Positions 1 through 17,540 of a DNA stretch of 64,000 nt are shown in pieces. The translations under genes and the position numbers were made by a program. Position 1 is the stretch's first letter; each line of letters begins with the position of its first letter. Source of the stretch: Escherichia coli (GTDB taxonomy: Bacteria; Pseudomonadota; Gammaproteobacteria; Enterobacterales; Enterobacteriaceae); the NCBI RefSeq assembly GCF_024700885.2, contig NZ_CP117016.1; one strand, written 5' to 3'. Below the pieces are notes generated by a model. The model was not told where the DNA came from, made no database searches, and saw only the letters and a list, made by a program, of their open reading frames with translations.

Positions 1-37
1 ATAATTAACACCGCAAAAAGTGCCAAAAATCGCAAAA

Positions 38-104
38 TGACTACACCAGTGACTACACCGTTCGGTGCACTGTATGAAACAACGTGGAACAAATAGACAC
101 AAGA
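38..104. repeat. Left-end repeat block: tandem gtgactacacc x2 followed by 10-bp phased AACAA repeats; near-identical block at 15068..15144
   Basis: tgactacaccagtgactacaccg at 38..60 is identical to 15068..15090; AACAA at 78, 88, 98. Confidence 0.6.
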
Positions 105-322
105 AATATACAGGCGGATCATCTTTCCAGGGGGAAGCACACCAATTCATGAGGGGCGTTAATGTCGATATGGGGATCCCCACCTACCGGAATTTTTTTC
201 CGGTTAAACGTTAATCAGGCTGGTGGGCTTTACCTGTTCGGTAGGTGTTATGATTATCGTAATACCTTTCCCCCAATGGGGTAAAAGCATCAACCGTAAC
301 GAAAGTCGTTATGGTTGCCACT

Positions 323-463
323 GATACCCCAAATTTGGGTATCACGAGTAAGCCCCAAAATCTGGGTGTTACTCTTACTACCCAAACTACGGGTAGTTTC
401 CGTAGTTTCATGGTCGAGTTGCAGATCTGCAACTCCCCCATTAACCACAGGCGAATTTCCGCC
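323..463. repeat. Cluster of inverted repeats (five or more hairpin-forming palindromes), function unknown
   Basis: gataccccaaatttgggtatc (323..343); ctacccaaactacgggtag (378..396); aaactacgg-gtagttt-ccgtagttt (384..408); perfect 20-bp palindrome gagttgcagatctgcaactc (415..434); ggcgaatttccgcc (450..463). Confidence 0.45.
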
Positions 464-689
464 TTCGGTCATTCCTTAATCATCTGCGTAATCATAATGA
501 TTATTCAGCAAGCGCAATTTTGCGCTTTGCTTAAAGTTCAGCGAGTTACCGCGCCGACTTCCTCAAATTGAGGTTTCCGAAAATATCAGCGGGTTAGCGA
601 TTAAGCTGACCATTAATTAAACTGCGAAAATGTCGTAGTTGTGAGGGGTGTAGCCAACCCATTTTTGGGCCGTCGGGAATATCAACCAG

Positions 690-971
690 TTACCGCCGCA
701 ACCGCTCCGGCTTCTTCCAGTGGTACGTTATTTTCTCCTTCTCCCGATACATCTCCACGCGGCGACGGTAGGCCAGCAACTCAAGAACTCTGGTTCGTAT
801 GTTGCGCATATCCACGCCATTAAGTTCTATACCATCACGGCGCATCACCTCAGCAACAACACGCGCATAGTTTTCGGCTGTCACGCTGTCCGGCTGCGTG
901 GCCTGTTCGTCAGCCTGCTGGCTGATTCCGGCAACGCGGCGGATTAATCCCGTTATTTCGGCTTCTGTCAT
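690..971 (-). CDS. Hypothetical protein, last gene of packaging operon
   Basis: 93-aa ORF starting 14 bp downstream of the terminase large subunit stop on the same strand. Confidence 0.5.
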   Translation of the reverse strand: MTEAEITGLIRRVAGISQQADEQATQPDSVTAENYARVVAEVMRRDGIELNGVDMRNIRTRVLELLAYRRRVEMYREKEKITYHWKKPERLRR

Positions 972-984
972 GCTGCTGACCTCA

Positions 985-2646
985 TTACACCCCGCTAAAT
1001 TCTTCCAGTTTCTGGCGGTGGCTGTCGCTTATATCAAAAGCAAAATCCTCATGCTCTGCCTGGAATGTACCAAACGCCATCAGCGCCGCCACGCTCGGGT
1101 CTATCTTGTTCGGTGATTTTTTCTTGTTCGGCTTGATATTGGCGTTCGCGTCACTCTGCATCACGACGTTACTCATCGACCAGGACAACACCGGATCGCC
1201 ACGATGCACAATCACCCTGCGGTTAACAAAAACTTCGAACGATTTCGCCGCCGGACTGAATCTGAGGTAGGTTTGCGGGAACGGCTCCACCTCAAAACCT
1301 GCCCCCTGTAATTGCGTTCTGAGATGCGTGGCGTTCCACGTATCAAAGCCCACCAGCCTGATATTAAATTTCTCCGCGTCCTGCATGATGTCATCTCTGA
1401 TCCGGTCGTAATCAATGCAGTCGCCAGGCGTTGTGCGTATCCAGCCTGCTTTAGCCCACTGACGATAGATGGCGCGGTTTTTATTGGCGGGGTTCTGTAG
1501 CTGAAATTCCGGCAGATAGTGACGGGAAACCAGCATAATGGTTTTACCGACCGGAAAGGCATAGCACACGCTGGAAATATCGCTGGTTGATGATAAGTCC
1601 AGCCCCGCGTAACACTCCTGGCCGTGTAAATCTTCCTCCGTGAACGTTCCGGCACACTCAGCCCATGCGCCGTTACCCATCCACGGGGTAGCCCCCTGGC
1701 ACCAGATATTAAATCGCTTTGTCATCATCTCCACCCACTGCGACGGAATACCCCGCGCTTTCTGGATGGTTGAGGCCAGTTTTTCACGATCGACGGAAAC
1801 ATCAATATTAGGGTTCGCCTTTATCCACATCGCCGGATCATCAACCTCGTTTTCGTCGTCCAGTTCGTAAATCAGTACAAAAATTGAATCGTTAACCTCT
1901 TCGCCGTCCAGGATCTGGCAGCAATAATCATAGTGCTGCTTACAGGCTGAAACGACGTTGCTGCCTGATGTGGTAATGGCAAATAACAGCCCTTCGGGAC
2001 GTGCGCCCATCCCCAGCTCAAGCGCGGAATAAACGCCGTTATCGGGGTGCAAGTGGTATTCGTCCACGATGGAAAGGCTGGGGTTTGTTCCCTCGATGGT
2101 TGCCGCTTTTGCTGCCAGCGGCTTTAACAGGCTGTTGCTTTTCGGGTGTATCACCTTATGCGCCTGAATATTCACCCGCCTGCGTAACGGTCGGGATAAA
2201 AGGCACATCTGACGCGCATCATCAAAGACGATCCGCGCCTGGTCACGGCTCACCGCTGCGGTGTAGATATCCTGCTGACCGTTCTCCATAATCAGAAACC
2301 AGTTAGCCAGAATCGCGGCGGTCGTGGATTTCGCATTTTTGCGCGGCACTTCGATAAAGGCGCTCGTGTATTTGCGCCGTCCGGTGGCCTTAACCTTAAA
2401 GCCGAGGATGCACGCAAAGGCGAACTGCTGCCACGGCTCCAGCTCAATGGGTCTGCCACGCATCGGTCCTTTTACGTGCGGGCACACCCTGGAAAAGGCA
2501 ATAAACCGCTCCACAACCTCACGATCGAACGTGTAAAGGGGGCTTTTAAGGTCCGAAAAGTACCGTTTAACGGCCTGTTTCAGCCGTTTACAGGCCGGAA
2601 TTTTGCCCGTTTTTACGTCTTCTGCGTACTTATTCCAGGCGGTCAA
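985..2646 (-). CDS. terL: Phage terminase large subunit
   Basis: 553-aa ORF with an N-terminal ATPase region and C-terminal nuclease-like region typical of Terminase_1 family; overlaps terS stop. Confidence 0.9.
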   Translation of the reverse strand: MTAWNKYAEDVKTGKIPACKRLKQAVKRYFSDLKSPLYTFDREVVERFIAFSRVCPHVKGPMRGRPIELEPWQQFAFACILGFKVKATGRRKYTSAFIEVPRKNAKSTTAAILANWFLIMENGQQDIYTAAVSRDQARIVFDDARQMCLLSRPLRRRVNIQAHKVIHPKSNSLLKPLAAKAATIEGTNPSLSIVDEYHLHPDNGVYSALELGMGARPEGLLFAITTSGSNVVSACKQHYDYCCQILDGEEVNDSIFVLIYELDDENEVDDPAMWIKANPNIDVSVDREKLASTIQKARGIPSQWVEMMTKRFNIWCQGATPWMGNGAWAECAGTFTEEDLHGQECYAGLDLSSTSDISSVCYAFPVGKTIMLVSRHYLPEFQLQNPANKNRAIYRQWAKAGWIRTTPGDCIDYDRIRDDIMQDAEKFNIRLVGFDTWNATHLRTQLQGAGFEVEPFPQTYLRFSPAAKSFEVFVNRRVIVHRGDPVLSWSMSNVVMQSDANANIKPNKKKSPNKIDPSVAALMAFGTFQAEHEDFAFDISDSHRQKLEEFSGV

Positions 2647-2986
2647 GCTCGTCCTCTTCTTCTGTTTCCGGTGGGTTTTTACGGCGGCTTATCGGGTCAA
2701 AACCGAGCAAGGAGGCCATTTTTATCATCACCCTTTCAGCGTCTGATTTCGCGCTTAATGCGGGGTTTCTGCTCTCGCCGCCCTGACTGTTAACAATGCT
2801 GAACCCGCGCGCCGCAAGGTCTGCGACGGCTTTCCGGTAAATGGAGTAGTTGACACAATACAGTTCCAGATTGCTCCAGTCGGCGGGGGTCAGGTCTCCC
2901 CGTTCCGCAAGCTGCCGCGATTTTTCCCGCCACTGCTTCACGGCGATGTCATCCAGGTAGGCGGGGGCTTTCGGTGGTCTTGCCAT
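2630..2986 (-). CDS. terS: Phage terminase small subunit (P27-like)
   Basis: 118-aa ORF immediately upstream of and overlapping terL; resembles P27-family small terminases with an acidic C-terminus. Confidence 0.7.
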   Translation of the reverse strand: MARPPKAPAYLDDIAVKQWREKSRQLAERGDLTPADWSNLELYCVNYSIYRKAVADLAARGFSIVNSQGGESRNPALSAKSDAERVMIKMASLLGFDPISRRKNPPETEEEDELDRLE

Positions 2987-3274
2987 GCTTATTTTTCGTC
3001 AGATTATTTTTCAAAAAATTCCCGTGCATAAAAATTTGAGGAGGCGTTCGGTGCCCGGCGGGGTCGGGTTTGTCCTGAAAACGCCCCCCACCCCGTCATA
3101 CAGCCTCATCAGCGATTGCGGAAACATTCCATAACCTCGCGGTCACGGTCGGTTAATCGCTTCGCTGTGATGCGTTCTGCGCGTCCTGACGCTTTATCTT
3201 TATGCCCTGTTTCCTGTGTCTTCCATGCGTCACGCTGCCTTATAAGTCCACGGATAAGGCGGTTTTGTTCCCGC
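2987..3274. other. Candidate cos/packaging site region between HNH gene and terS
   Basis: 288-bp non-coding gap in an HNH-cos-terS-terL arrangement (as in HK97-like cos phages); GC-rich segment cggtgcccggcggggtcggg...ccccccaccccgtc. Confidence 0.3.
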
Positions 3275-3715
3275 TCATTCATCAGCGTCATACATCCAGT
3301 TATTGCGGTTAGCGGCCCGTTCTTCCTCTTCACGAAATCCACCTGCGGCACGCTTGCTTTTTGTTGCCGGATCAAGCCATTTCGTTTTCTGGTTATGACA
3401 CGCCTGGCACAATGGTTGATGGTTCCATTCGGGCCAGAAGAGAACATCATCACCGCCATTAATCGGGATAATGTGATCCACCACCACGGCGGGCGTATAT
3501 ATCCCCTTCTCAAGGCATCGCACGCATAACGGGTTTTTACTCAGATACATGGCGCGGTATTTGTCCCACTGTCTGGAATATCCACGCGCGCGGCGGTGTC
3601 CTCGTCTGGCATCCTCTGCACGCCATGCCGCCCGCCTGTGCTCCTCACACTTGCCGGATTTAACGCGCCTGTTACAGCCTGGTTCTGTGCATCGTCTTAA
3701 TGGTTGCCACGGCAT
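3275..3715 (-). CDS. HNH endonuclease (terminase-associated)
   Basis: 146-aa ORF with Cys pairs and the DHIIP...N..LC..CH..K HNH motif, positioned upstream of terS. Confidence 0.85.
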   Translation of the reverse strand: MPWQPLRRCTEPGCNRRVKSGKCEEHRRAAWRAEDARRGHRRARGYSRQWDKYRAMYLSKNPLCVRCLEKGIYTPAVVVDHIIPINGGDDVLFWPEWNHQPLCQACHNQKTKWLDPATKSKRAAGGFREEEERAANRNNWMYDADE

Positions 3716-4011
3716 CAGTACACCCCCACATCACGGTAAGCCGTCCAGAGTGCGCCTATCGTCATGGGTACGCGTGTTTTTGCGTTATCCGCGACAATCT
3801 GGCGATTTTCATACAGGTGAGCGATAAACATCATGCAGCCAATCTTTATGGCTGGCGTGAACTCCAGCCCGTCATCAAAGCGCCTGCCTATGTGTATCTG
3901 GCACGCCTCAAGCGATGCGGCAATGTATCCGCTGATTAACTGGTCTTCATCGTCGCCATCGATGCGGCAATGGAGTTTCACTTCTTCCAGGGTGATAAGT
4001 TCTTCTGTCAT
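3715..4011 (-). CDS. Head-tail connector protein (gp6-like)
   Basis: 98-aa ORF, MTEELITLEEVK... resembles phage gp6-like head-tail connector family; translationally coupled to neighbours. Confidence 0.65.
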   Translation of the reverse strand: MTEELITLEEVKLHCRIDGDDEDQLISGYIAASLEACQIHIGRRFDDGLEFTPAIKIGCMMFIAHLYENRQIVADNAKTRVPMTIGALWTAYRDVGVY

Positions 4012-4346
4012 TTTTCCGCGCCCTCACGACAAAGAATTTCAAGGCGTGTCCTGGCGGCATCCGGCAGCGGCTGCCCGATGATATTCAGTACACGCCCCGC
4101 CAGCGGCCCCGTACTGACCTTTATCCGGCTGGTGGCGTTGATGTCCTTCCGGTACCGTATCCAGATCCTTACGGTACCAATCGCCAGCTCTGCGCCCGAT
4201 GAAATGGCCTCCTTGCTGCTGACCATGTTCACGCTTGCCCAGAGTGTGTGACCGTCCTCCCACGTTTCGAGTATTTCGCCGGTTATATCCCTGGTCTGTT
4301 TCAGGGTCTGAATCGTTATCCTGTCACGCAGTCGCCCTATGTTCAT
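4008..4346 (-). CDS. Head-tail adaptor / head closure protein
   Basis: ORF 4008..4388; probable start MNIGRLRDRITIQ at 4346, directly after portal stop, typical N-terminus of head-tail joining proteins. Confidence 0.65.
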   Translation of the reverse strand: MNIGRLRDRITIQTLKQTRDITGEILETWEDGHTLWASVNMVSSKEAISSGAELAIGTVRIWIRYRKDINATSRIKVSTGPLAGRVLNIIGQPLPDAARTRLEILCREGAEK

Positions 4347-5554
4347 TCCGGTTTTTCTCCCTCGCTGATTTTTACTTCCTGTTTCCATGCCTGGCTGAAC
4401 TCATCACCACCATCACGCGGTGACAGACCTTCACGTTCGCGGGCTTCGTTCGGACACATAACGCCGGATTTGATGCCGCGCTCATAGGTGGCAAAGCGTT
4501 CGCCAGGTGTGGCCCGTAACAGGTCCGCGCTGTCAAACTCCACCTGATACCGGATACCAGGTACAGGCGAGGCCACCAGCAGGGCGTTTTTTATCTGCTG
4601 CTCAAAGTTCGCCAGCCACGGGCGCATCGTCATGGTGAGAAATGCGCGGCTTGCCTCGCTGAAATTGCTGTAGGTGCTGTTGCTGTATTCCTGCAAAAAA
4701 ATCGGCGAGACGTTGAACATTCGGGCGATGTCTTCAATGGTGAAGCGACGGGAGGCCAGCCATTCAGCATCCTGATTACTCATGCCCAGCTGCTGATAGC
4801 TCATACCCCCTTCAAGGATGGGCGTTTTTCCGGCGTTTCTGGCCCCTTTGTAGCGTTCCAGTGCGGCTAATGCCTGTTTGCCCTTCACGCCGTCCAGCCA
4901 TTCGCCTGACGTGATAACCCCTGCCGCCATCATGCCATCACGCATCACGCTCGCGCCGTGGCGTTGTTGGGCCAGCCCAAGCCCCAGCGATTCGCGGCAG
5001 ATGGTTACAGGTGAGCACCCCATAAAGCCGTCATCCGTGGAGTAACGAAGGTGAAGTACTTCCCACGGTAAATAGTTGCGGGTGTTTCCGGTGTAGGCGT
5101 CAGTGATGCAGTAGCGCCAGTTGTGTTCGCCTGTCTGCTCCACGTTCACCGACTGCGGCGGGTAAGGATGTAAAGCCGCCGGAAAACCATCACGCCCCCA
5201 CTGAATCACCGCATAAGCATTACCGTTTAACAGGCAGTGGCGGATCATCATTCGCTTAAACTGGTAGGGGGTTTGCCATGCGTTCGGGCGCTCGTTGAGG
5301 ATGTGATCGACCGGATGAGAATCAAGCCACTCGCGGGCCTCCTTCCCCTTCTCATTGCGTACCAGGTACAGGTAACACGGCATGGTAGCCACCGCCTCAG
5401 AGATGACCGTCACGGCGTTCATGACGGCGGGCAGTGATTCCGCTGTCCCCGATGATACGTACTCACCCGCCCCCGTGTTCGATGTGCCAGCCAGCGCCAT
5501 AAATTCATCCAGCGTCATGCTGCGCTGCTCTTTTTTTCTTCTGAAAGGCCACAT
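4343..5554 (-). CDS. Portal protein (HK97 family)
   Basis: 403-aa ORF sitting between the prohead protease and adaptor genes, resembling HK97-family portal proteins. Confidence 0.85.
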   Translation of the reverse strand: MWPFRRKKEQRSMTLDEFMALAGTSNTGAGEYVSSGTAESLPAVMNAVTVISEAVATMPCYLYLVRNEKGKEAREWLDSHPVDHILNERPNAWQTPYQFKRMMIRHCLLNGNAYAVIQWGRDGFPAALHPYPPQSVNVEQTGEHNWRYCITDAYTGNTRNYLPWEVLHLRYSTDDGFMGCSPVTICRESLGLGLAQQRHGASVMRDGMMAAGVITSGEWLDGVKGKQALAALERYKGARNAGKTPILEGGMSYQQLGMSNQDAEWLASRRFTIEDIARMFNVSPIFLQEYSNSTYSNFSEASRAFLTMTMRPWLANFEQQIKNALLVASPVPGIRYQVEFDSADLLRATPGERFATYERGIKSGVMCPNEAREREGLSPRDGGDEFSQAWKQEVKISEGEKPE

Positions 5555-5555
5555 A

Positions 5556-6128
5556 TCACACCCCCGCTAAATCCACCCACCAGCGGCGATTATCCGCACG
5601 CGGCATTTTTTCGGGGTGCTGCTCATACAGGGAACGGCGGGCCAGCTCCACGCCGGAATCGGGGTAAGCCGGTACCGATGTAACGGTAATTTCGTACAGT
5701 TCCGCCACCAGCACGGTGCGCACGCATGGATCTGTTGTGGTATCCCATACATCCTTACGGGAGCGAAAGCCAAAGCTCATCCCCGAGATGTCCCCACGCT
5801 TAACCAGTTCGATAACGTCGCGCCCTGTACTGGTATCCGGTGGGGTCAGTTCAAAGCGTAACCCTGTTTCGTCCTCTTCCAGTTTCAGCGTGCCGGAACG
5901 GGTGCGCCCCAGTAACATGCTGTGGTCATGCTCATACAGGCCGCGAACGTCATTACCCGCCGCAAGCCACTCAGTAAACGCCCCCCGCTGGAATTTTTCG
6001 TAAAACTCCCCCCATAGCAGTTCTGAAAGCTTATCCCAGCGAACAACGTAGCCCGTCAGCGTACCGGCTCCGCTGGTAGTGATTTCCGATGACCGGATTT
6101 CCATACTCTTCATAATTTTTTCACCCAT
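5556..6128 (-). CDS. Prohead maturation protease (HK97 family)
   Basis: 190-aa ORF immediately downstream of the capsid gene, resembling HK97 prohead protease. Confidence 0.85.
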   Translation of the reverse strand: MGEKIMKSMEIRSSEITTSGAGTLTGYVVRWDKLSELLWGEFYEKFQRGAFTEWLAAGNDVRGLYEHDHSMLLGRTRSGTLKLEEDETGLRFELTPPDTSTGRDVIELVKRGDISGMSFGFRSRKDVWDTTTDPCVRTVLVAELYEITVTSVPAYPDSGVELARRSLYEQHPEKMPRADNRRWWVDLAGV

Positions 6129-6167
6129 AAAACACTAAAGGGGCTTTTAAGCCCCTTCTGTATGCTG

Positions 6168-7325
6168 TTAATCGTCGTCCTGTGGCAGTTCCAGAATCTT
6201 GATCGCGTTCGAATCCACCACGCCACCGCCTAAATATTTCTGCGTGAAAATTTTGATGAAGCCCGGCTCTGTGAGGTTGTCCGGTCTGGTGCGAACACCT
6301 GTTTCGTGATCAACAATGTAGTAACCGCGTTTGAAGTCACCCAGGGCAATAACGTTATCCGGCATAAACTCCAGATATTCGACCGGAAGGCCCAGTAACG
6401 TATCAGGATCACCCGCCTGTAAACGGTCGCGCCAGATGTAATCACCGTTCGCGTTCTTCACCTTCTGAAGTTTTGCCGCCGTCGTGGAGTTAACCACCCA
6501 GACCGCGTTTTTGCGGTATTTTTTACGTAATGCAAATTTCAGGTCGATCAGCGGGTCCGCAGATGTCCACGCCAGAGATTCGGAAGGTTTAATTACCTGC
6601 AACGTACCAAAATCACGCTCTTTGTCGTTCTTCTCTGCACGGGGTACGGATAAAAAGCCTTTTGCTTTTTTGTCACCGTCGCCCACAACCAGATCGCTTT
6701 CTTCGGTTTCCGTGAAGTTGTCGCCAATCTCGCCCGTCAGCCATGAAAGGATGTCCACATCGGAAAAATCCACGATTTCCTGCGTGGTGCGCGGGTACGC
6801 ATAGACCGGATACAGCTTAATGCTCACCTCGTTAATCTGCGGGGTGCTGGTCTGTTCGCGTGCCTTACCCTCTTCACCGTGGTTAACGGTCGCACCGCCA
6901 GCGGAAACAAGCTGCTTAAACTCGTTGCTGCTGATTTTCTTCACGGTACAGATGCGGCGCATGGTGGATTCATCCGTCAGCATTCGCATGATTTCGGTGT
7001 TCAGTTCGGGGATAACGGTATAACCACCATCAGCGGGAACGCCTGTACTTAATGCGCGGGTTTCACCTGTCAGAATGTAGTGACGTAGTTCGGCTGGGTC
7101 AGTGGTCTGACTGCTTTTACCTGGCTTGCTGCGCTCTTCGTCTGCAATGGCTTCAAGGCGGGAAATGTCTTTATCGAGGGATTCAGCTTTAGCGCGTAAT
7201 TCGTCAAATTTTGCGCCCTCAGCATCGTTAAGACTGCGGTTTTCTTTTTCCGCGTTCTCCAGCATGTCGCGCATCTGATTTTTAATGGCGGTTTTCTGCT
7301 GGCGTAATTCGATTATTCTCGGCAT
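6168..7325 (-). CDS. Major capsid protein (HK97 fold) with N-terminal delta/scaffold domain
   Basis: 385-aa ORF with a coiled-coil-rich N-terminus followed by HK97-like capsid region. Confidence 0.85.
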   Translation of the reverse strand: MPRIIELRQQKTAIKNQMRDMLENAEKENRSLNDAEGAKFDELRAKAESLDKDISRLEAIADEERSKPGKSSQTTDPAELRHYILTGETRALSTGVPADGGYTVIPELNTEIMRMLTDESTMRRICTVKKISSNEFKQLVSAGGATVNHGEEGKAREQTSTPQINEVSIKLYPVYAYPRTTQEIVDFSDVDILSWLTGEIGDNFTETEESDLVVGDGDKKAKGFLSVPRAEKNDKERDFGTLQVIKPSESLAWTSADPLIDLKFALRKKYRKNAVWVVNSTTAAKLQKVKNANGDYIWRDRLQAGDPDTLLGLPVEYLEFMPDNVIALGDFKRGYYIVDHETGVRTRPDNLTEPGFIKIFTQKYLGGGVVDSNAIKILELPQDDD

Positions 7326-7605: not shown

Positions 7606-7612
7606 TGTGTGA

Positions 7613-7894
7613 TTATCTGTCCTGGTAATTTCGCCATATTTCATTACCAGCACCATCCATACCCATTTCGGCATAAGTGCGATCGACCGCCTTTTTCAGG
7701 TCTCCGTAGTTATCCGGCGGCTCCGGTGGCCTCTGTGCCTTCCTGGAACATTCCAGCCGTCGCATCGTGATGTGATGCCGTTCCTTGTCTGTCTCCACCA
7801 GTTGCATGACTTCACCCCATCGCGCCGACGCTCTCCGGTAAAAGCCTTTCGCCTCCAGTTCTTCCGCTATGCGGTCATGTACCATCGTCCCCAC
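7613..7894 (-). CDS. Hypothetical protein
   Basis: 93-aa ORF in operon with the SSB gene. Confidence 0.5.
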   Translation of the reverse strand: MGTMVHDRIAEELEAKGFYRRASARWGEVMQLVETDKERHHITMRRLECSRKAQRPPEPPDNYGDLKKAVDRTYAEMGMDGAGNEIWRNYQDR

Positions 7895-7897
7895 CCC

Positions 7898-8308
7898 TCA
7901 GAACGGAATATCATCACCGTAAGGGTCATCGCCTCCCGCTGGTGGCTGATTACCCTGTGTGCCTGTGGTCTTGCGTCGGCTCCCACCAGGACGTGCCGCA
8001 CGGGCACTGATTACGCTGTCTGCAATAACCTGATAACCCTGCCGCGTTTCCCCGTTCTGTCCGGTCCACTGGCTGACCTGCATCGTGCCGGATACGCTGG
8101 CAACGTCGCCTTTTTGATGTTTAGCCAGGAAGTCGGCCTGCTTACCAAATGCGATGACCGATAGCCATAACGTCGCCTGTCCATCCTGTGCCTGGCTGCA
8201 TGGCAGCGATACCGCCATACGCGCCAGCGTCATCGGTGTACCCTTGCTGGTCTGTTTTACCTGCGGGTCGTCCACCAGCCGCCCGTAAGCTGCTATCTGT
8301 GCTGTCAT
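7898..8308 (-). CDS. ssb: Single-stranded DNA-binding protein (SSB-like)
   Basis: 136-aa ORF with OB-fold-like core, Gly/Pro-rich linker and C-terminal DDIPF tail as in bacterial SSB. Confidence 0.75.
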   Translation of the reverse strand: MTAQIAAYGRLVDDPQVKQTSKGTPMTLARMAVSLPCSQAQDGQATLWLSVIAFGKQADFLAKHQKGDVASVSGTMQVSQWTGQNGETRQGYQVIADSVISARAARPGGSRRKTTGTQGNQPPAGGDDPYGDDIPF

Positions 8309-8583
8309 GATTCCACCTCTCCGGTTTTAACGTTGATGGTTGTTACCTGTTCCGCTTCGGCAATCTCCCGCTCTGTCAGCGTGGCAAAATTTGCCGCCGT
8401 CGTGGTCATGAATGCGCTTATCAGTTTGGGATGTGCTTTCGCGTATCCTTCCCCCGCGTGGCGGTCTATCGTTCTGATTGCCACCTTTAAAGCGTGCTCT
8501 GTCATGTCTAACGCGCGATATTTCGGTTCTGTTCTGTCTCTGCGTTTTTTGAGTGATTTATTAAATTTCCCTGAAGTGTGCAT
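8305..8583 (-). CDS. Hypothetical protein
   Basis: 92-aa ORF between the iteron origin and the SSB gene, overlapping the SSB start. Confidence 0.5.
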   Translation of the reverse strand: MHTSGKFNKSLKKRRDRTEPKYRALDMTEHALKVAIRTIDRHAGEGYAKAHPKLISAFMTTTAANFATLTEREIAEAEQVTTINVKTGEVES

Positions 8584-8629
8584 ATTTATTTTTACCCCCT
8601 CGTTTAAAAAGTTTTGAGTTGTGCCTCCC

Positions 8630-8860
8630 CTTGTCTACCTTATCTACCTTAGTGGCCCTCATACCAGTAATGGCGCGGCTTTCAGCGGGGTAGAGTGCTT
8701 TTATCCACTATCTACCCCGTGTCTACCTCCCTGTCTGATTCAGGTAAAATCAGGTAGAGAGGGTAGATAGTGGGTAGACAGTAAAAAAAGGTTATCTACC
8801 TAACTTAATGCACTGAATTAAATGTATTTTTCTTTACTCAGGTAGACAGGGTAGACAGCA
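8630..8860. repeat. Iteron array, putative island replication origin
   Basis: Ten or more copies of T(A/G)TCTACC in both orientations (e.g. tgtctacct, tatctacct, caggtagagagggtagatagtgggtagacag, caggtagacagggtagacag) immediately 3' of the primase gene. Confidence 0.7.
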
Positions 8861-8871
8861 ATTACAAAAAA

Positions 8872-10626
8872 TTATAAAAACGCGTCGCACTCGTCTGTTG
8901 TTATTGCGTTAGTCTGCGTTACTCCCTTAACTTTCCGCGTAATATATTCATGTCCGTAAACTTTCGCGGCTGGCTTCATAGCCTTGCCAAAGTCATTTAC
9001 GTTTAGCGGTTTGCTCCTGCCTGCGTACGCCATAAACGCCAGATAGACGCGGTAAAGGCTGTTTCTGGTCGTGTACTTCACTGAATCGCCACCGCCGCCC
9101 ATCATCAGGCCGCGTGCTTCCTCCAGAAAATTCAGGAACTGGCAAAACTCAATAACCGGATCCGTCTGTTGCTTTATTGCCAGAGCTTCATCACCGTCAC
9201 GCTGTTCCAGTAGTAAAGCCCGTGCCTTCTCAGGGTCGGTAAAGTTCGCCAGCAATCGGCGGATAATGACAGGGATTTCAGCCGCGATCTTTTCCGGTAG
9301 CTCCCTGTCTTTTTCGGCCTCACTGACGATATTGTCGAAACGGAAAATCACGCGACGACGTGCCACACCTCCGGCCCGTTCGGTGAATATCATCGGGTTA
9401 TTGTTGGTCGCCAGCACCACCGCCCTGATTACCGCCGTGAAACGCTTTTCGTATTTCGGGTTAATTTCCACGGGGTCACCGCCCGTGATTTTCTTGATGC
9501 CCGTTCCTTCGCCTGTATATTTCGGCTGGTCAGCCAGGACGATAAGACGACTCCCGACAACCTGCGCACGTCCACCAGCATCATCAAGCGATGTCATTTC
9601 AGCGCTTACCGTGTTCTGTTTCCCTGCCAGAAGGCTGGCTATGTGTGTGAATGTACTTTTACCGCTCCCGCCGTCTCCGGTGGCCTCAATAAACATCTGC
9701 CAGTCGTACCGGTTCGCCATAATCATGTACAGCGCGGCACATATACGCATCATCTTGCGCGGGTCTTTTCCGGCTGCGTGCTCAAGCCATTTATGAAAGT
9801 TTGGCGCGTTATCGCGGATGTTCTCCCCTGGTGCTGGTGGCGTGTACTCAATGCCGTTGTGCGTGGTGATCCAGTTCTCCGGCGTGTGCGGGGAAAATTC
9901 CCCCGTTTTCAGGTCAAGCGCACCATTGGCGAACGGCAACAAATCGCCGGACGGCTCGCCCATTGGTTCGGCAATAACTTTTAACGCTTCCACGGCGTTA
10001 TTGATTACGCGCTTGCTGAAAGTGGCCCTGTGCTCTGAATAGATCGCCACCATTTCGCGGCTAAGTTCCATTGTGCTGACCGGACACCATACCCCGCCGC
10101 GCCATACGTGAACGATTTCACTTTCAGGATGTACGCAAACGCCATCAAAGCGATCGGCAAGCAGTTGCGCGCGCTCACTGTCCGCCATCTGCGAAAGTTG
10201 CGCCTTTTGCTTTACCGGAAGCTCAATGACCAGACCATCAGAAAGATTCTGGCGCTCACGGGCCAGATATTCGCGCCAGTTCTCCACCTTCTGACCGTGC
10301 ATACCATCAGGGTAAAAATTTGCATCCTGTACGCCTGCCGCCGCCAGCTTCTGACCAATCGCCTTTATCATTACTGGCGCAAGATATCCGGCCCTGAATA
10401 TGCGCACGGATTTTCTGCCTTCCGGCACAATTTGCAGCTTATCCAGTTCGGATAACTGCTGCTCCCCAAGCCACACAGGAGGCTCATTATCTCCGGCCAT
10501 ACGCGCGTCATGTTCCTGCCATTGTTTTGCGTGTGACCAGGCATCACTACCCGCAAAAATAATGACTTCTGTTTCTTTGTGTTTTATGCCGCGTGACTGC
10601 TGTTTTACGTTCGGTGCCAGTTTCAT
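8872..10626 (-). CDS. Replication initiator: phage/plasmid primase with D5/P4-type NTPase (helicase) domain
   Basis: 584-aa ORF with Walker A GDGGSGKST and downstream motifs typical of P4-family primase C-terminal domain; followed by iterons. Confidence 0.8.
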   Translation of the reverse strand: MKLAPNVKQQSRGIKHKETEVIIFAGSDAWSHAKQWQEHDARMAGDNEPPVWLGEQQLSELDKLQIVPEGRKSVRIFRAGYLAPVMIKAIGQKLAAAGVQDANFYPDGMHGQKVENWREYLARERQNLSDGLVIELPVKQKAQLSQMADSERAQLLADRFDGVCVHPESEIVHVWRGGVWCPVSTMELSREMVAIYSEHRATFSKRVINNAVEALKVIAEPMGEPSGDLLPFANGALDLKTGEFSPHTPENWITTHNGIEYTPPAPGENIRDNAPNFHKWLEHAAGKDPRKMMRICAALYMIMANRYDWQMFIEATGDGGSGKSTFTHIASLLAGKQNTVSAEMTSLDDAGGRAQVVGSRLIVLADQPKYTGEGTGIKKITGGDPVEINPKYEKRFTAVIRAVVLATNNNPMIFTERAGGVARRRVIFRFDNIVSEAEKDRELPEKIAAEIPVIIRRLLANFTDPEKARALLLEQRDGDEALAIKQQTDPVIEFCQFLNFLEEARGLMMGGGGDSVKYTTRNSLYRVYLAFMAYAGRSKPLNVNDFGKAMKPAAKVYGHEYITRKVKGVTQTNAITTDECDAFL

Positions 10627-10922
10627 TTTTTACCCCTGAATCCGTTAATCATGGTTTTCAGCTTCTGGATGTTTGCCCGTGCCCTGGCGTTGCTGGTGGA
10701 CACGTTATGCGGCGCGGTCTGTACCAGAGAAAAATCACGCCGGAACTGATAAACAGGCATCACGCAATCATATTCGTAACCTTCACGGCGGTAGGTTACG
10801 CGCCGTTCTTCCACGCCCTTAATCATTACCGTGCCGCCGTACTGGTCGCGGTAAATATCGCCGCGCGTAAATTTAGGGTGAGTGTTGCCACTGGCAGTTA
10901 AGCCAGAATATTTAAGTTTCAT
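10623..10922 (-). CDS. Hypothetical small protein (accessory operon gene 7)
   Basis: 99-aa ORF whose stop overlaps the primase start (ATGA). Confidence 0.5.
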   Translation of the reverse strand: MKLKYSGLTASGNTHPKFTRGDIYRDQYGGTVMIKGVEERRVTYRREGYEYDCVMPVYQFRRDFSLVQTAPHNVSTSNARARANIQKLKTMINGFRGKK

Positions 10923-10927
10923 TATTT

Positions 10928-11161
10928 TTATTCTCCGGTGTGCTGTTCTTTATATCTGTCGTGCAATAGATCTATTTCTTGCAGTTCCATTATTACAGGC
11001 TCAAGAAGCGTTATTAATGCCGTGGCAATTCTTGATTTTTGTTTGTCGCGTTCATTGTCGCCAAGTGTTTCAAGCCATATGCGCAATATTTCCAGCATGT
11101 TTTCACTGTGAGAAAGTGCAAGAAATGCGCGGTCTATTGTTTCGTGGTAAATATCACGCAT
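10928..11161 (-). CDS. Hypothetical small protein (accessory operon gene 6)
   Basis: 77-aa ORF, same strand, tightly packed. Confidence 0.45.
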   Translation of the reverse strand: MRDIYHETIDRAFLALSHSENMLEILRIWLETLGDNERDKQKSRIATALITLLEPVIMELQEIDLLHDRYKEQHTGE

Positions 11162-11387
11162 GGCTTACATCCTCAGGAAATTTTCTTCTATAACGCGCCT
11201 CTGCCACATATTCCGCATAATCGGCGGCGATATTCAGTACATCAAGCCCCGTTGATTTATATTCTCTCGTGGAAAGTAAGAAAAAAGCCGCTCTAATAAG
11301 TTCTGGCATTGACGAAAGCGCATCAGCCGCATCATCAGGAACGCCGGAAAATTCCTGTTTCAGGGAATTAAAACGATCATCACGCAT
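11154..11387 (-). CDS. Hypothetical small protein (accessory operon gene 5)
   Basis: 77-aa acidic ORF overlapping its neighbours by 8 bp. Confidence 0.45.
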   Translation of the reverse strand: MRDDRFNSLKQEFSGVPDDAADALSSMPELIRAAFFLLSTREYKSTGLDVLNIAADYAEYVAEARYRRKFPEDVSHA

Positions 11388-11763
11388 GTTTACCCCCCTG
11401 AATGACCTGATAACCGCAACTGGTCAGCAACTCGATAAATTCCGGCAGTGTGCCGAAACAGCAATCATCACGCAGCCGTTCACAGGATACCTCGACGCCG
11501 TTTTCGTAGTGACTCACCATACATCCGGTAAAATGCAGATCATCATCGTGATGGCTCGTTGACGGCTTAATCAGTCGCGCACGTTCCGCCAGTTCCAGCA
11601 ATGCTTCAACGCTTCCGGCAATTGCACCATCCGGCAGGTGATAATTACGCACTATGCGCCCGTTCTCCACATTGACCAGCAACTGCCCGGTAAATTTCTC
11701 ATCAAACTGAATGCTGTTAAGGTCAGAAATTGACAGATTATGCATGGTGCACCTCCTGCACAT
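11380..11763 (-). CDS. Hypothetical protein (accessory operon gene 4)
   Basis: 127-aa ORF; start may be the internal Met at 11745 (MHNLSI...). Confidence 0.5.
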   Translation of the reverse strand: MCRRCTMHNLSISDLNSIQFDEKFTGQLLVNVENGRIVRNYHLPDGAIAGSVEALLELAERARLIKPSTSHHDDDLHFTGCMVSHYENGVEVSCERLRDDCCFGTLPEFIELLTSCGYQVIQGGKHA

Positions 11764-12016
11764 CAGCCATGATAATTTTTCCGGCCTTATCCAGTGCCTG
11801 ATCGGCTTTTAGCTGCACAAATGCTAAATAATGGAAGATGCATTCTGATTCTCTGGCTGCGTGTTTATGCGCCCTGTCAGCAATAACAGAAATATCAATA
11901 AGCGCGTGCATCAGCGTAGTGAGCGCGGCGGCGGCTGCGTCCGGTGTGGTTTTATTGCACATGTACCCCTCCGCATTTTTTTTCGTTAGAAATAAGCGTT
12001 CTTCTTTCCTGTTCAT
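11738..12016 (-). CDS. Hypothetical small protein (accessory operon gene 3)
   Basis: 92-aa ORF; start may be the internal Met at 11962, which would remove most of the overlap with the upstream gene. Confidence 0.45.
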   Translation of the reverse strand: MNRKEERLFLTKKNAEGYMCNKTTPDAAAAALTTLMHALIDISVIADRAHKHAARESECIFHYLAFVQLKADQALDKAGKIIMADVQEVHHA

Positions 12017-12182
12017 CGCTCAGGAATACGCAGACCTCACCGCTAAGGCGTTTAAGTAAGCCGATGATTGCCCCTGATTCGCTGTCGGTCATCATGCCAG
12101 GGTAATCCTCTGCCAGTGCGCAAATAACTTCGATTTGGTGGGCGCGTTCTGCTGCCTGTTGTAGTGTGATTTCCTGGCTCAT
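11952..12182 (-). CDS. Hypothetical small protein (accessory operon gene 2)
   Basis: 76-aa ORF, start overlaps the stop of the upstream gene. Confidence 0.45.
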   Translation of the reverse strand: MSQEITLQQAAERAHQIEVICALAEDYPGMMTDSESGAIIGLLKRLSGEVCVFLSDEQERRTLISNEKKCGGVHVQ

Positions 12183-12379
12183 AAGCCTACCCCCTGACGA
12201 ATACGGGCAGCAAATACCATCACGCAGCCAGCCGGAGATTGCTGGCGTGCTTCCTGTTCGCTGGTGGCCTCAATGGTAATCACGCGCGGTTGTGCCGTGC
12301 TCAGGGCGATAAAACGCCAGATGTATTTATTCAGGTTGTGCGAGTCCCGCCCTTGCGGGTGTGTGGTATGATTTCTCAT
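12179..12379 (-). CDS. Hypothetical small protein, first gene of leftward operon (Cro-like position)
   Basis: 66-aa ORF starting MRNHTT at 12379; the 340-aa ORF in the track is read-through across the regulatory region. Confidence 0.4.
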   Translation of the reverse strand: MRNHTTHPQGRDSHNLNKYIWRFIALSTAQPRVITIEATSEQEARQQSPAGCVMVFAARIRQGVGL

Positions 12380-12476
12380 AGCTACCTCGATACTTTCGCT
12401 ATCGTTGGTGGTTAGAAGCCCGGTTAGTGTTAGCGCACTGCCGGGTTTCGTCGTTTCTGCACCTTGCGCCAACAAG

Positions 12477-12528
12477 GTGTTGAACACCAATTTAAACCCA
12501 GGTGTTAAACACGTCAAGTGTTGAACAC
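12477..12528. promoter_or_regulatory. Three palindromic operators GTGTTnAACAC between divergent promoters
   Basis: gtgttgaacac (12477..12487), gtgttaaacac (12502..12512), gtgttgaacac (12518..12528) in the gap between divergent gene sets. Confidence 0.6.
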
Positions 12529-12578
12529 TTATTTTTTTTCCTGCATACTGCATTTGTTTTTTATGAGGGGTACACCAC

Positions 12579-12758
12579 ATGGCGACAAAAGCGGTAAACG
12601 CAAAATCACAAACCGTTGCGGCAAGGGTTCCGCATGAAGTTATGAACAATGTTGAGGCGGTAAAAATGCCTGGCGAAAGTACGGGGCAATTTGTTACTGC
12701 GGCATTAAAACGAGAAGTTGAATATCGCCAGCGGCGCAAGGCCAAAGAACCAGAGTAA
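12579..12758 (+). CDS. Putative ribbon-helix-helix transcriptional regulator
   Basis: 59-aa ORF (below the track cutoff) with a Shine-Dalgarno-like gagggg upstream; beta-strand/helix/helix pattern typical of Arc/MetJ/CopG family; adjacent to operators. Confidence 0.5.
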   Translation: MATKAVNAKSQTVAARVPHEVMNNVEAVKMPGESTGQFVTAALKREVEYRQRRKAKEPE

Positions 12759-12800
12759 TCACCATCAGCGCCGTGGTGTAAGGTATTACGGCGCATTGCT

Positions 12801-12989
12801 ATGCAGGACAACACAATGACCGATAAAGAATTGACCAAAACATTATCACCGGCACGGAAAAGACGGCGCAGAAAGATAGAGCATGAATCAGAAAGATTCG
12901 CGCCATGTGCTTTTGCCCTTGAGCAATTCCTTAAAGAGTACAGGGAAAAGCGCTCATTGCAGGTATGGCAACGAACTGAACCAGACTGA
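12801..12989 (+). CDS. Hypothetical small basic protein
   Basis: 62-aa ORF downstream of the RHH gene on the same strand, followed by a terminator. Confidence 0.4.
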   Translation: MQDNTMTDKELTKTLSPARKRRRRKIEHESERFAPCAFALEQFLKEYREKRSLQVWQRTEPD

Positions 12990-13083
12990 TTGCATTGCCC
13001 ACCAGCCTGATAACGGCTATCATCCCCGTGCTTATGTTTGGGATCACACACACAAACGGCGCAGCGGGTTATCTGTTCAGAAA

Positions 13084-13113
13084 GGCGGCTCCATTTCGGG
13101 GCCGCTTTTTTTA
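13084..13113 (+). terminator. Rho-independent terminator of rightward regulatory transcript
   Basis: Hairpin gcggctcc-attt-cggggccgc followed by TTTTTTT. Confidence 0.55.
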
Positions 13114-13258
13114 TACCTGAAAAACCCCAATTTTGTTGTTTTTCAGTTTCACCAGGGCGAACGAATCCCCGCCCACGTTCTGGCGTATATTCAATCTTCA
13201 TGGTTATAGCTCTGTGTTCAGATGATTGATGTGTGGCGGCTGCGTGCCGCCAGCGTGA

Positions 13259-13528
13259 TTAATGAACTGCCTTGCAGCTATCCTTCCAGGCCAGAACCTC
13301 GGATAAAGACCAGCCAACGGAACGACCGCCAAGTTTACGACGTGATGGGAATTGTCCGGCCTTTTCCAGGCGGTAGCGACACGTACGGCTAAGGCCGGTT
13401 AGTTTTTCGCATTCTTTTTCACGTATAAACCGATCAGTGCTTAACACTATTGCCCCCCTTTCGTTTCTTAAAGAGTCATCAGGTGTCTTATTGTGTCGTA
13501 TTGTTCCCGCTAGAGTGATGAATGGCAA
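13259..13528 (-). CDS. alpA: AlpA-family phage transcriptional regulator / excisionase-like
   Basis: 89-aa ORF; C-terminal region ...LTGLSRTCRYRLEKAGQFPSRRKLGGRSVGWSLSEVLAW matches AlpA-family pattern; adjacent to int; true start may be downstream. Confidence 0.8.
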   Translation of the reverse strand: MPFITLAGTIRHNKTPDDSLRNERGAIVLSTDRFIREKECEKLTGLSRTCRYRLEKAGQFPSRRKLGGRSVGWSLSEVLAWKDSCKAVH

Positions 13529-13720
13529 ATACTGAGGATGTATGATTTACAGAAAATGAAACAGTAAGAATAAAATTTTTTAAATTCATGTTAATACAAA
13601 GGCATAAAATATTGTTCCATGCCTTTTTTCTCGCTCTTTAAAGAGTGATTCGCTAGTGTACAAAAAACCAGTAACGCATTAAAAATCAGCTACTTATAAA
13701 TCCGTACGCTTTTTCGCCTC

Positions 13721-13765
13721 TTGTTCGTAGTTGTTCCACATTGTTGCTCATTGTTGCACGTTGTA
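13721..13765. promoter_or_regulatory. Five 10-bp phased TTGTT repeats (reverse-complement of AACAA array) between int and alpA
   Basis: ttgttcgtag ttgttccaca ttgttgctca ttgttgcacg ttgta at exact 10-bp spacing. Confidence 0.5.
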
Positions 13766-13812
13766 TCTGTTCGCATATCCAGTATGCGCATACTGAAAAA
13801 ACACGAAAAAAA

Positions 13813-15042
13813 TTATTTTCTTCTGGCTACGGGTAGCGTGGTTACGTTTTCATGTGTTCCCGCCAGTATCCCTAACCGCTCCGTCCACATATCCAGCGCA
13901 TTGCGTTTCGCATCCAGATAACGGGAATGATTATAAACTCGCTGCATTCCTGGCATCTGGTGGCCTGTAAGCTGCTCCACGACATGCGGATCAACGCCTA
14001 AATCGTTCAGCATGGTTGTAAAGGTGCGCCGGATGTCATGCAGTGACCAGTGAGGGTGATTAAGCCTCCTGTACGCTAATCTTCCATACTGCGATACGCT
14101 GGCCTCCTGTTTCACTTCCCCCAGCAATAAGCCCGTGTGCCTGTTCTGCTCCACCAGCTGCGTGACGAACGGCAGGATCGCTTCCGGTATGGGCCGGAAT
14201 ATTGCGACCTTCGTTTTGCTGTGCTCCTTCGGAACGGTCCATAGCATTTCCGTAAAATCCCACTCCCCGATCTCCGATAACCTCAGTTCTACCGTTCTGG
14301 CTCCGAAGACAATCAGGAGGCGGATTAACGCGACGTAGTAAGGGGAGAATATTTTTTTGTCCAGTGCCTGCAATAATTCGCCAAGTTCTTTGTTACTTAA
14401 GACACGTTCGCTTATATCCGGTTTTTTCCCAACGTCCGCAACGTTCAGATCGTCCAGAACGTTGCTGATTGCATAGCGCCGCCTACGGCAGAACTTAAGC
14501 GCCTGTTTGCACGCCTGTAGCACGAATCCGGCAGTAACAGGCGTTCGCTTTGCCACCTGGTCAAAACAGGCCAGCCAGTGCCGTAGCTCGCATTTATCCA
14601 GCGGCATAGCACCAATCTGCTGTATTACGTGATTATTAAGTCGCCTTTTCAGGGCGATATAATCCACGCGGTTTTCCTTTACGTAATACTCAAGCCAGTA
14701 GGTGAGCGCATCGCCAACCGTTACGGGCTTTAACGCTTCCTGTACGGTGTAATTCATCTCATGACGTGGATTTTTCCCCTCAGCCAGCCATGTGCGACAC
14801 TGTGCGGCTTTTTCCCTGGCTGCTTTCAGGCTCAGATCAGGATAACTTCCCAGCTTAATGCGTTCGGGTCGTGTCTCCCTTCCCGTTCCGGCCCTGTATG
14901 TGAAATACCAGGTCAATTTCCCTGATGTTAAATATTTCACGCTCAGGTTTCCGCCATCACTATAAAACGTGTTTTTCTCCGCTGGCTTACCATGAAGTTT
15001 CCTTAGCAAGGTATCGCTCAGTTTGTTCATTGCTCTGCTCAC
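13813..15042 (-). CDS. int: Tyrosine-type site-specific integrase (P4-like)
   Basis: 409-aa ORF with catalytic-domain motifs (HDIRRTF, GHQ, VYNHSRY) at the island end next to the chromosomal junction. Confidence 0.92.
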   Translation of the reverse strand: MSRAMNKLSDTLLRKLHGKPAEKNTFYSDGGNLSVKYLTSGKLTWYFTYRAGTGRETRPERIKLGSYPDLSLKAAREKAAQCRTWLAEGKNPRHEMNYTVQEALKPVTVGDALTYWLEYYVKENRVDYIALKRRLNNHVIQQIGAMPLDKCELRHWLACFDQVAKRTPVTAGFVLQACKQALKFCRRRRYAISNVLDDLNVADVGKKPDISERVLSNKELGELLQALDKKIFSPYYVALIRLLIVFGARTVELRLSEIGEWDFTEMLWTVPKEHSKTKVAIFRPIPEAILPFVTQLVEQNRHTGLLLGEVKQEASVSQYGRLAYRRLNHPHWSLHDIRRTFTTMLNDLGVDPHVVEQLTGHQMPGMQRVYNHSRYLDAKRNALDMWTERLGILAGTHENVTTLPVARRK

Positions 15043-15067
15043 GTTTTACCCCCTCTTTACGAAAAAG

Positions 15068-15144
15068 TGACTACACCAGTGACTACACCGATCGTTGCAC
15101 AAAGGGCTACAACGTGAAACAAGCTGGAACAAGGAAAATCACAA
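15068..15144. repeat. Right-end repeat block, copy of 38..104
   Basis: tgactacaccagtgactacaccg (15068..15090) then phased AACAA at 15118, 15128, 15140. Confidence 0.6.
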
Positions 15145-16144: not shown

Positions 16145-16148
16145 AGGG

Positions 16149-17540
<1,392 letters not shown>

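Follow-up and report, generated by a model that had tools for sequence, protein, structure and literature searches.

The island in tqsA and its terminal repeats

The stretch of Escherichia coli DNA considered here (contig NZ_CP117016.1; the window, 64,000 nucleotides in all) opens within an island of ~15.27 kb, a single element that lies within tqsA, the gene of the AI-2 (autoinducer-2) exporter. Between the left edge of the window and ~15.2 kb the minus strand carries genes for an integrase (Int), an AlpA-type helix-turn-helix (HTH) protein, Icd-like proteins, a DUF4222 protein, a primase, a single-stranded DNA-binding protein (SSB) and PerC, together with those for the major capsid protein, the prohead protease, the portal, the head-closure and connector proteins, an HNH protein, and the small and large terminase subunits. 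No tail or lysis genes appear in the RefSeq annotation of the island copy from which the gene assignments were taken, and which is identical to the window over 1..2500 and 99.5% identical over 13500..16500. The junction between int and tqsA is found in ~246 of 5,426 complete E. coli genomes. Near both ends of the island lies an identical 23-bp repeat, and we consider it likely, from the sequence comparisons described below, that its copies are arm-type sites of the island's own integrase, two adjacent sites in each arm of the attachment site attP (a 2+2 layout).

The 23-mer TGACTACACCAGTGACTACACCG has exactly two copies in the window, both on the plus strand, at 38..60 and 15068..15090, where a previous sequence-only reading of this DNA had placed an identical tandem repeat; no third site with up to three mismatches occurs elsewhere in the 64 kb, and 100 dinucleotide-preserving shuffles yielded 0 matches. 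Internally, the repeat is built from a tandem 11/12-nt unit, (A/G)TGACTACACC, which starts at positions 37, 49, 15067 and 15079, and each 23-mer can be described as a doublet, ACTACACC-N4-ACTACACC, with a period of 12 bp. On the int-coding strand, ACTACACC reads GGTGTAGT. The same reading had reported similar but diverged sequence behind each copy, and the repeat search indeed pairs 34..109 with 15064..15139 (76 nt, 76% identity), the likeness coming to an end at about 112 and 15143, respectively. The right-hand doublet begins 26 nt upstream of the GTG start codon of int. We use "int-proximal" for the right-hand side of the window and "int-distal" for the left-hand side; attL/P' would be the name of the int-proximal junction under the convention used for lambda.

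A three-way alignment of attB (the empty tqsA of K-12), attL and attR, for which the left junction was taken from a genome 100% identical to window positions 1..2500, leaves TGCTGTTAT alone in common, followed by an imperfect nnnTAAC. The left copy of TGCTGTTAT lies off the window and ends 38 nt to the left of position 1 in two identical genomes (the attL core corresponds to 15955..15963 of locus L001), which bears out the earlier claim that the 5' part of tqsA and the true left junction are not in the window. In the complete genomes CFSAN061761 and MLI114 the core, the 5' end of tqsA (the first ~45 codons) and mdtJI lie to the left of the window, with no int among them, and MLI114 matches the window at 100% identity across int and the right junction as well. 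The arm sequence in window positions 1..37 is conserved in islands at other attB sites. Both 23-mers are situated inside the element, 78 nt (int-distal) and 128 nt (int-proximal) from the 7-9-bp core TGCTGTT(AT), and tqsA sequence starts again ~130 nt to the right of the int-proximal copy. In the empty K-12 tqsA attB, ACTACACC was not found.

Geometry shared by related islands

Homologues of the int-proximal arm are present in 1,037 complete genomes. We compared the tqsA island with three diverged relatives (L003, L004 and L005), satellites that have the same int-alpA backbone and different packaging modules; they occupy the sites phoQ|roxA (in O157:H7), smrA|abgR and clpS|cspD, and their Ints are 91, 84 and 75% identical to the one described here. 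All three carry the doublet at both ends in the same orientation, so the four islands represent four attB sites. Among them only the 8-mer is invariant, in the form ACTACACC-N4-ACTACACC-G, and the first three bases of the unit vary (GTG/TTA/TTG/ATG). Alignment of the int-proximal arms holds as far as a conserved GATAAAA, beyond which they diverge into the four targets. The attL/attR identity blocks are TGCTGTTAT, AAATATGTCC, TCACGATATT and ATAACTATCAT; when they are placed in the register of the arms, the only positions common to all of them are the 7 nt that follow GATAAAA (TGCTGTT, TATGTCC, TCACGAT and AACTATC), and in these alignments this is the pattern expected of a 7-bp overlap region. 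The reconstructed attP core of the O157 island is a perfect inverted repeat, GATAAAA-TATGTCC-TTTTATC. The interval from int-proximal doublet to overlap, measured last base to first base, is 129 nt in each of the four islands (tqsA, phoQ|roxA, smrA|abgR and clpS|cspD), and that from overlap to int-distal doublet, measured in the same way, is 79 nt in the tqsA, phoQ|roxA and smrA|abgR islands and 78 nt in the clpS|cspD island. Counted from the centre of the overlap, the distances are 132 nt on the int-proximal side and 82 nt (81 in one island) on the int-distal side. The four islands have different packaging modules, of which the doublet is independent.

A wider survey covered 80 diverse relatives drawn from one-genome-per-species contigs (Int identity 25-57%), which gave 77 usable loci from Serratia, Yersinia, Hafnia, Xenorhabdus, Proteus, Pectobacterium, Klebsiella, Shewanella and other genera. 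An exact repeat of at least 8 nt was found within 130 nt upstream of int in 65 of the 77 loci (84%), and its period was 12 in every one of these 65, though periods of 9-15 were allowed; the control rate in 4,800 random windows from the same loci was 1.1%. The 8-mers are clade-specific (GGTGTAGTC, GTGCAGTC, GGTGTATCA, GTGGGGTAA, TGTATAAACA, TGTATTGCA, GTGTAACCA, GTGTACCCA and others), and further doublet types among the relatives include GGTGTAGT, GTGCAGT, TGTATTGC and GTGGGGTA. Wherever the far end of a short island fell within the fetched locus, a second, co-oriented doublet was present, with the attL/attR identity block between the two. In five loci of other clades the doublet-to-doublet spacing in the reconstructed attP is 212-214 nt, compared to 213 nt here. 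A scan of viral contigs with ACTACACCNNNNACTACACC returned an Int homologue in 8 of 120 loci, all of them 84-99% identical, the rest being unrelated matches, and thus brought in no new diversity.

Departures from the 2+2 layout were also seen among the surveyed loci. Three IMG/VR loci with TGTATTGC doublets (L064, L046 and L078) possess a third full arm unit, TTGCAATACACA, ~25-35 nt from the doublet on the int side, and it appears from their sequences that the layout can be 3+2 in some clades of the HE-PICI type (helper-embedded PICI; PICI, phage-inducible chromosomal island). At -12, -24 and -36 nt on the core side of the int-proximal doublet, 52 non-redundant loci of the set L247-L326 exhibit a weak in-phase likeness to the doublet unit, with a mean of 3.0-3.5 matches out of 8 against a background of ~2.1. 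Either degenerate extra arm sites or overlap with the A/C-rich array described below may explain these weak matches; the enrichment is only weak, and we do not claim a third degenerate arm unit.

The geometry and the junctions bear on several other explanations of the terminal repeats. An att core typically shows up as an identical direct repeat at either end of an island, and the title of the sequence-only reading had implied that the 23-mers mark the island ends. The attB/attL/attR alignment refutes the core as a candidate: the 23-mer is missing from attB, the ends are at TGCTGTT(AT), with the true block TGCTGTTAT 78 and 128 nt outside the repeats, and islands with the same doublet possess four different cores. 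We see practically no chance that the 23-mer is a core or boundary repeat generated by integration. The same reading had allowed that the window opens at the int-proximal end of a second, tandemly integrated island, of which the left copy could also be a decayed remnant; the resemblance of the left module to the int-proximal one (76% over 76 nt) and the fact that the window is cut just before it would suit this idea. However, window positions 1..37 differ from the int leader and instead match the int-distal arm, which runs into the core and the 5' end of tqsA, and neither a second int gene nor an int leader was found directly to the left of the left repeat in window 1..37, CFSAN061761 or MLI114. 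The check proposed together with that suggestion, namely inspection of the sequence upstream of the window, points to a single island, because the 5' end of tqsA and mdtJI lie directly to the left of the window in these two sequence-identical genomes, and it refutes the tandem arrangement for the sequenced relatives. Moreover, single islands at three other attB sites exhibit the same two-ended layout and the same distances. A tandem island is scarcely credible, and judging from these sequences the element is one single satellite that splits tqsA. Finally, the island codes for its own terminase, HNH protein, portal and capsid, and terminal repeats could be imagined to serve DNA packaging as pac- or cos-like ends. 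Yet relatives with unrelated packaging modules, or with none, are flanked by the same doublets, the doublet tracks the arm domain of Int (see below), and its position is fixed with respect to the att overlap rather than to terS, which leaves a role in packaging with a negligible probability.

The protein that reads the doublets

The Int of the island comprises an N-terminal Arm-DNA-bind_3 domain (Pfam; residues 8-95, E=1.1e-17) and a Phage_integrase domain (residues 214-375). The N-terminal domain structures 3JTZ/3RMP and 3JU0 from the PDB, which represent solved isolated N-terminal domains of CP4-like and phage integrases, align to residues 8-95 and 17-102, respectively. In addition to this separate N-terminal arm domain, the hallmarks of heterobivalent tyrosine integrases found here include repeats that are unlike the core, flank it on both sides and are missing from attB, a short overlap identical in attP and attB and bordered by inverted core-type sites, and covariation of the repeat with the arm domain. 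The suggestion of the sequence-only reading that the repeats reflect Int arm-site architecture of attL and attR is in good agreement with these data: the repeat lies inside both arms and is absent from the empty tqsA site, its distances to the crossover are fixed in four islands, and it covaries with Arm-DNA-bind_3.

We assign the doublet to Int because doublet and arm domain change together between conserved flanks. In the comparison of loci with ACTACACC and TGTATTGC doublets, arm domains are at least 56.8% identical within the TGTATTGC group and at most 50.0% identical between the groups, and AlpA provides no clean split (down to 37% within the TGTATTGC group and up to 56% between groups). 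When the doublet type of the 51 loci with a classifiable doublet is predicted from protein identity, the arm domain reaches an area under the curve (AUC) of 0.95, compared to 0.71 for the remainder of Int and 0.84 for AlpA. In 14 pairs of loci, AlpA is 90-100% identical yet the doublets differ; the arm domains are 46-63% identical in 12 of these pairs and 81% identical in the other two, whose doublets are one base apart (GTGCAGT vs GTGTAGT). Conversely, 10 pairs share the same doublet with AlpA proteins less than 45% identical. In two pairs with identical AlpA we followed DNA identity along the locus: the 40 nt flanking the doublet on its core side (the tail) are 82-87% identical, the doublet itself is down to 20-45% and the arm-domain codons to 35-62%, and identity then climbs through the body of int to 90-97% from the 3' end of int through alpA. 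The Xenorhabdus loci L268 and L299 encode Ints of the TGTATAAACA and GTGGGGTAA type together with identical AlpA. A query composed of alpA, int and the arm gave no alpA-only matches in E. coli genomes, i.e. none with the same alpA and a different int, and the discriminating pairs come from other genera.

On the basis of this covariation and of the survey we lean, by a narrow margin, towards a rigid family-wide attP design of the Arm-DNA-bind_3 (P4/PICI-type) integrases, in Enterobacterales and beyond, in which two exact doublets with a 12-bp period would stand ~213 nt apart around a 7-bp overlap, the clade-specific 8-mers would constitute a code between arm domain and DNA, and doublet and arm domain would evolve or be exchanged as a unit between conserved AlpA-associated flanks.

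A near-isogenic natural pair was also noted, in which locus L252 (Enterobacter soli) differs from L253 and L257 (Phytobacter and Kosakonia) by a single base of the doublet (GTGCAGTC vs GTGTAGTC), with arm domains 81% and AlpA proteins 94-96% identical. Its comparison could pinpoint the residue that reads the differing base.

Several points weigh against Int as the reader and against the generality of the design. The case for Int derives from covariation among related, linked loci; the doublet is 26 nt away from the arm-domain codons, and co-inheritance of adjacent DNA could account for part of the signal. Ten of the 77 surveyed loci have no repeat of at least 7 nt upstream of int, the two most distant loci depart from the common spacing (226 and 188 nt), and a perfect core-type inverted repeat is confined to the O157 island, its counterpart in the tqsA island being imperfect. 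Furthermore, the paper on the analogous motif of HE-PICIs left it open whether the binder is the Int arm domain, AlpA or an unknown protein (PMC10111431). AlpA is required for excision of E. coli PICIs (PMC6092414) and, as the AUC indicates, partly predicts the type of the doublet. Nonetheless, binding of the doublets by AlpA or by another accessory or host protein instead of Int appears improbable in view of the pairs in which AlpA and doublet part company, and of DNA identity that collapses precisely at the doublet and the arm codons while tail and alpA retain 82-97%; clade-specific 8-mers would, in turn, not be needed by a host protein like IHF (integration host factor). It is also conceivable that the int-proximal copy acts mainly as an operator of int transcription or translation, the distal copy being a by-product of duplication with no role in recombination. 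The location of the proximal doublet upstream of the int start codon fits this notion, as does KplE1, in which arm sites overlapping the int promoter give negative autoregulation (PMC2951348). However, the distal copy keeps its exact distance to the overlap in every island examined and likewise in other clades, which would not be expected of a functionless duplicate, and a scan of 14950..15300 revealed no sigma-70 consensus promoter (or terminator), which leaves autoregulation of int without direct support. We regard the operator hypothesis as about as improbable as binding by AlpA or another protein; besides, an operator role of the proximal copy is compatible with arm-site function and hence not a true alternative.

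With the doublets taken as Int arm sites, integration can be pictured as follows; we infer the protein binding, the tetramer and the autoregulation of int in this scheme. In the excised circle, 213 nt would separate the two co-oriented doublets, and the overlap would fall within this interval, with 78 nt on its int-distal and 128 nt on its int-proximal side. An Int tetramer would occupy the core sites (GATAAAA, the overlap and an imperfect inverted copy) with its catalytic and core-binding domains, and its N-terminal Arm-DNA-bind_3 domains would reach the four ACTACACC sites, two per arm. Bending of the DNA would close the intasome, the arms being shaped by AlpA arrays beside the doublets and probably by a host bending protein. 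Recombination across the 7-bp overlap TGCTGTT would then insert the island in tqsA and leave one doublet at each of its ends, i.e. the repeats noticed in the sequence-only reading. For EcCICFT073, integration has been assayed with an int-attP suicide plasmid (PMC6092414). AlpA, the island activator and probable recombination directionality factor (RDF), would be the likeliest reader of the arrays. By analogy with KplE1, binding of Int at 26 nt upstream of the int start codon might in addition lower int expression.

The closest counterpart is the "doubled motif" tgTGTATTGCantgTGTATTGCa of HE-PICIs, two co-oriented copies of which lie 81+/-2 and 132+/-2 bp from the centre of attP, and which was said not to be found in other PICIs and was assigned no binder (Tommasini, Mageeney & Williams 2023, PMC10111431). 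The likeness extends to a tandem 8-mer with a 12-bp period, present in two co-oriented copies of which the one at 132 nt is next to int, and the distances of 82 (81 in one island) and 132 nt measured here fit the published values. The integrases are homologous (40-45% identity to the Ints that adjoin TGTATTGC doublets), alpA follows int, and on the int strand the units are related (GGTGTAGT here vs TGTGTATT). On the other hand, the 8-mer is ACTACACC/GGTGTAGT and not TGTATTGC, the integrase belongs to another clade, the targets are chromosomal tqsA and other host sites rather than late genes of lambdoid helper prophages, and the architecture is found here in many clades, with covariation that points to the Int arm domain.

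The attP of phage lambda contains the arm-type sites P1, P2 and P'1-P'3 as well as sites for Xis and IHF. As in lambda, there is a heterobivalent integrase with an N-terminal arm-binding domain, the arm sites are unlike the core sites and form adjacent direct repeats to either side of a 7-bp overlap, and next to an arm site, between it and the core, lies an array of sites, here predicted, for an accessory protein. Unlike in lambda, the arm domain belongs to the Arm-DNA-bind_3 family, the doublets are exact and symmetric (2+2 vs 2+3), a candidate RDF array is present on both arms, and int is transcribed away from att with the doublet in its leader. In the KplE1/CPS-53 system of IntS and TorI, arm sites that overlap the -10 box have been mapped experimentally (Panis et al. 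2010, PMC2951348). Common features are int abutting the att arm, arm-type sites in the region upstream of int, interleaved RDF sites, and separate transcription of int and the RDF gene; the difference is that no promoter has been located here, where autoregulation is a deduction.

Arm-type sites at both ends of the element are expected for integrases of this kind, and the exact architecture is already published for the sister clade. What goes beyond the literature consulted is the generality of the 2+2 design, with its 12-bp period and ~213-nt spacing, across many clades with clade-specific 8-mers, the covariation that appears to tie the doublet to the arm domain, and the apparent tracking of AlpA by the neighbouring array. 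If true, the family-wide design would answer the question of the HE-PICI paper as to which protein reads the doubled motif, and would contradict its statement that other PICIs lack such a motif; the computational answer is Int, not AlpA, and the assignment of the array to AlpA constitutes a testable prediction. The result also fixes the true limits of the island and its reconstructed attP, and provides a rule for delimiting PICI-type islands: a doublet with a 12-bp period is sought upstream of int, then its co-oriented twin, and the crossover is placed 128 nt past the former and 78 nt past the latter. Natural pairs of arm domains and 8-mers could, in addition, serve the study or re-engineering of arm specificity in this large integrase family.

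Phased arrays and other features of the island

The diverged tail beside each doublet is a separate element, composed of ACAA/GAACAA units phased at 10 bp (Table 1). Four arrays of at least 3 units are observed in the island, compared to 0.005 expected per shuffled island, and the placements in the arm and at alpA recur in related islands. In pairs of loci with AlpA at least 90% identical but different doublets, the identity of the tail is mostly 73-83% (background: median 62%, 95th percentile 68%), and in pairs with the same doublet but AlpA less than 60% identical it is at background, 47-67%; as far as these comparisons go, the tail tracks AlpA and not the doublet or Int. In E. coli PICIs, AlpA acts as an activator of its own promoter and of the island operon, and excision requires it (PMC6092414). 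Because AlpA has these two functions, its binding to the phased GAACAA arrays is a reasonable prediction, to which we would give even chances. The arrays at 7542..7565 and 13721..13764 are candidate AlpA operators that would tie excision to activation of island genes; among the papers searched, none relevant to operator sites of AlpA in these islands was found.

The int-proximal arm contains, between its array and the core, an A/T-rich stretch, ATAATCAAAAACATAATG (15143..15165), which three of the islands conserve and the fourth conserves in part. It loosely resembles an IHF site, whose consensus we take to be WATCAANNNNTTR.

Table 1. Positions of attachment-site elements, arrays, genes and Chi sites in the window
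Feature	Position	Strand	Remarks
Inner int-distal att arm, between off-window core and doublet	1..37	+	Equals L001 16001..16037 and MLI114
Int-distal arm-type doublet (predicted)	38..60	+	Invariant 8-mers ACTACACC at 40..47 and 52..59
Phased array, 3 units	79..102	+	Int-distal arm; candidate AlpA (RDF/activator) site
Phased array, 3 units, AACAACGTGGAACAACCACGAACAA	7542..7565	+	Between PerC-like gene and capsid operon, upstream of the latter
alpA, small AlpA-family HTH regulator	13259..13447	-	Translation of open reading frame; PGAP "helix-turn-helix transcriptional regulator" in identical island
Phased ACAA array, 5 units	13721..13764	- (alpA-coding)	Between int stop codon and alpA; same placement in L003 and L004
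int, tyrosine integrase with N-terminal arm-binding domain	13813..15042	-	Pfam and PDB alignment
Int-proximal arm-type doublet (predicted)	15068..15090	+	Invariant 8-mers ACTACACC at 15070..15077 and 15082..15089
Phased array, 4 units	15099..15132	+	Int-proximal arm, between doublet and core; conserved in L003, L004 and L005
Crossover region, int-proximal junction	15211..15226	+	Three-way att alignment
Conserved core-type site GATAAAA	15211..15217	+	Part of crossover region
7-bp overlap TGCTGTT	15218..15224	+	Sole positions common to identity blocks of four islands, in arm register
attL/attR/attB identity block TGCTGTTAT	15218..15226	+	Three-way alignment
tqsA, 3' part	15227..16124	+	Severed by the island from the first ~45 codons
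Chi sites	219, 1350, 4128, 4573, 5577, 5705, 7938, 8272, 9572, 9833, 10692, 12260, 12999, 14151		

The island splits tqsA after about codon 45, and RefSeq/PGAP calls both pieces partial pseudogenes. At the right junction, in the region 15189..16124, an in-frame TGA TAA precedes the tqsA frame and no in-frame start codon is restored; as judged from the sequence, carriers of the satellite are probably tqsA-null.

Capsid-forming PICIs have been defined by int, alpA and primase/rep together with a capsid gene set of their own, by the lack of tail and lysis genes and by a size of ~10-15 kb (bioRxiv 10.1101/2022.09.08.507074). The tqsA island contains int, alpA, primase/rep, capsid, protease, portal, connector and terminase genes and no tail or lysis genes, and judged by genes and size it is a capsid-forming-PICI-like satellite. 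Compared by description, its gene set, which also includes HNH and comprises both TerS and TerL, resembles that of the prototype EcCIEDL933 (15.4 kb vs ~15.3 kb here); the paper on EcCIEDL933 (bioRxiv 10.1101/2022.09.08.507074) makes no mention of att arm sites or of a tqsA site.

The gap immediately downstream of the primase gene, which spans 8872..10626 of the minus strand, contains a 16-nt inverted repeat, TATCCACTATCTACCC at 8702..8717 and GGGTAGATAGTGGGTA at 8761..8776, with 94% complementarity and a 43-nt spacer, which is a plausible candidate for the replication origin of the satellite.

The island is also rich in Chi sites (GCTGGTGG): positions 1..15226 contain 14 of them in 15.2 kb (6 on the plus and 8 on the minus strand), vs 6 in the remaining 48.8 kb, and shuffles predict 2.0 for the whole window. 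The three related islands possess 12, 13 and 12 Chi sites, i.e. ~1 per kb, on both strands. Such enrichment may protect linear satellite DNA from RecBCD; among the papers searched, nothing relevant on Chi enrichment in satellites was found. Three of the Chi sites share the longer context ATCAGGCTGGTGGGC(TTT), at 214..231, 1345..1362 and 12997..13011; of these copies, one is close to the int-distal arm, and the other two are inverted, with one of the inverted pair inside terL (985..2646). By its length, the 18-nt perfect match among these contexts is evidently not due to chance.

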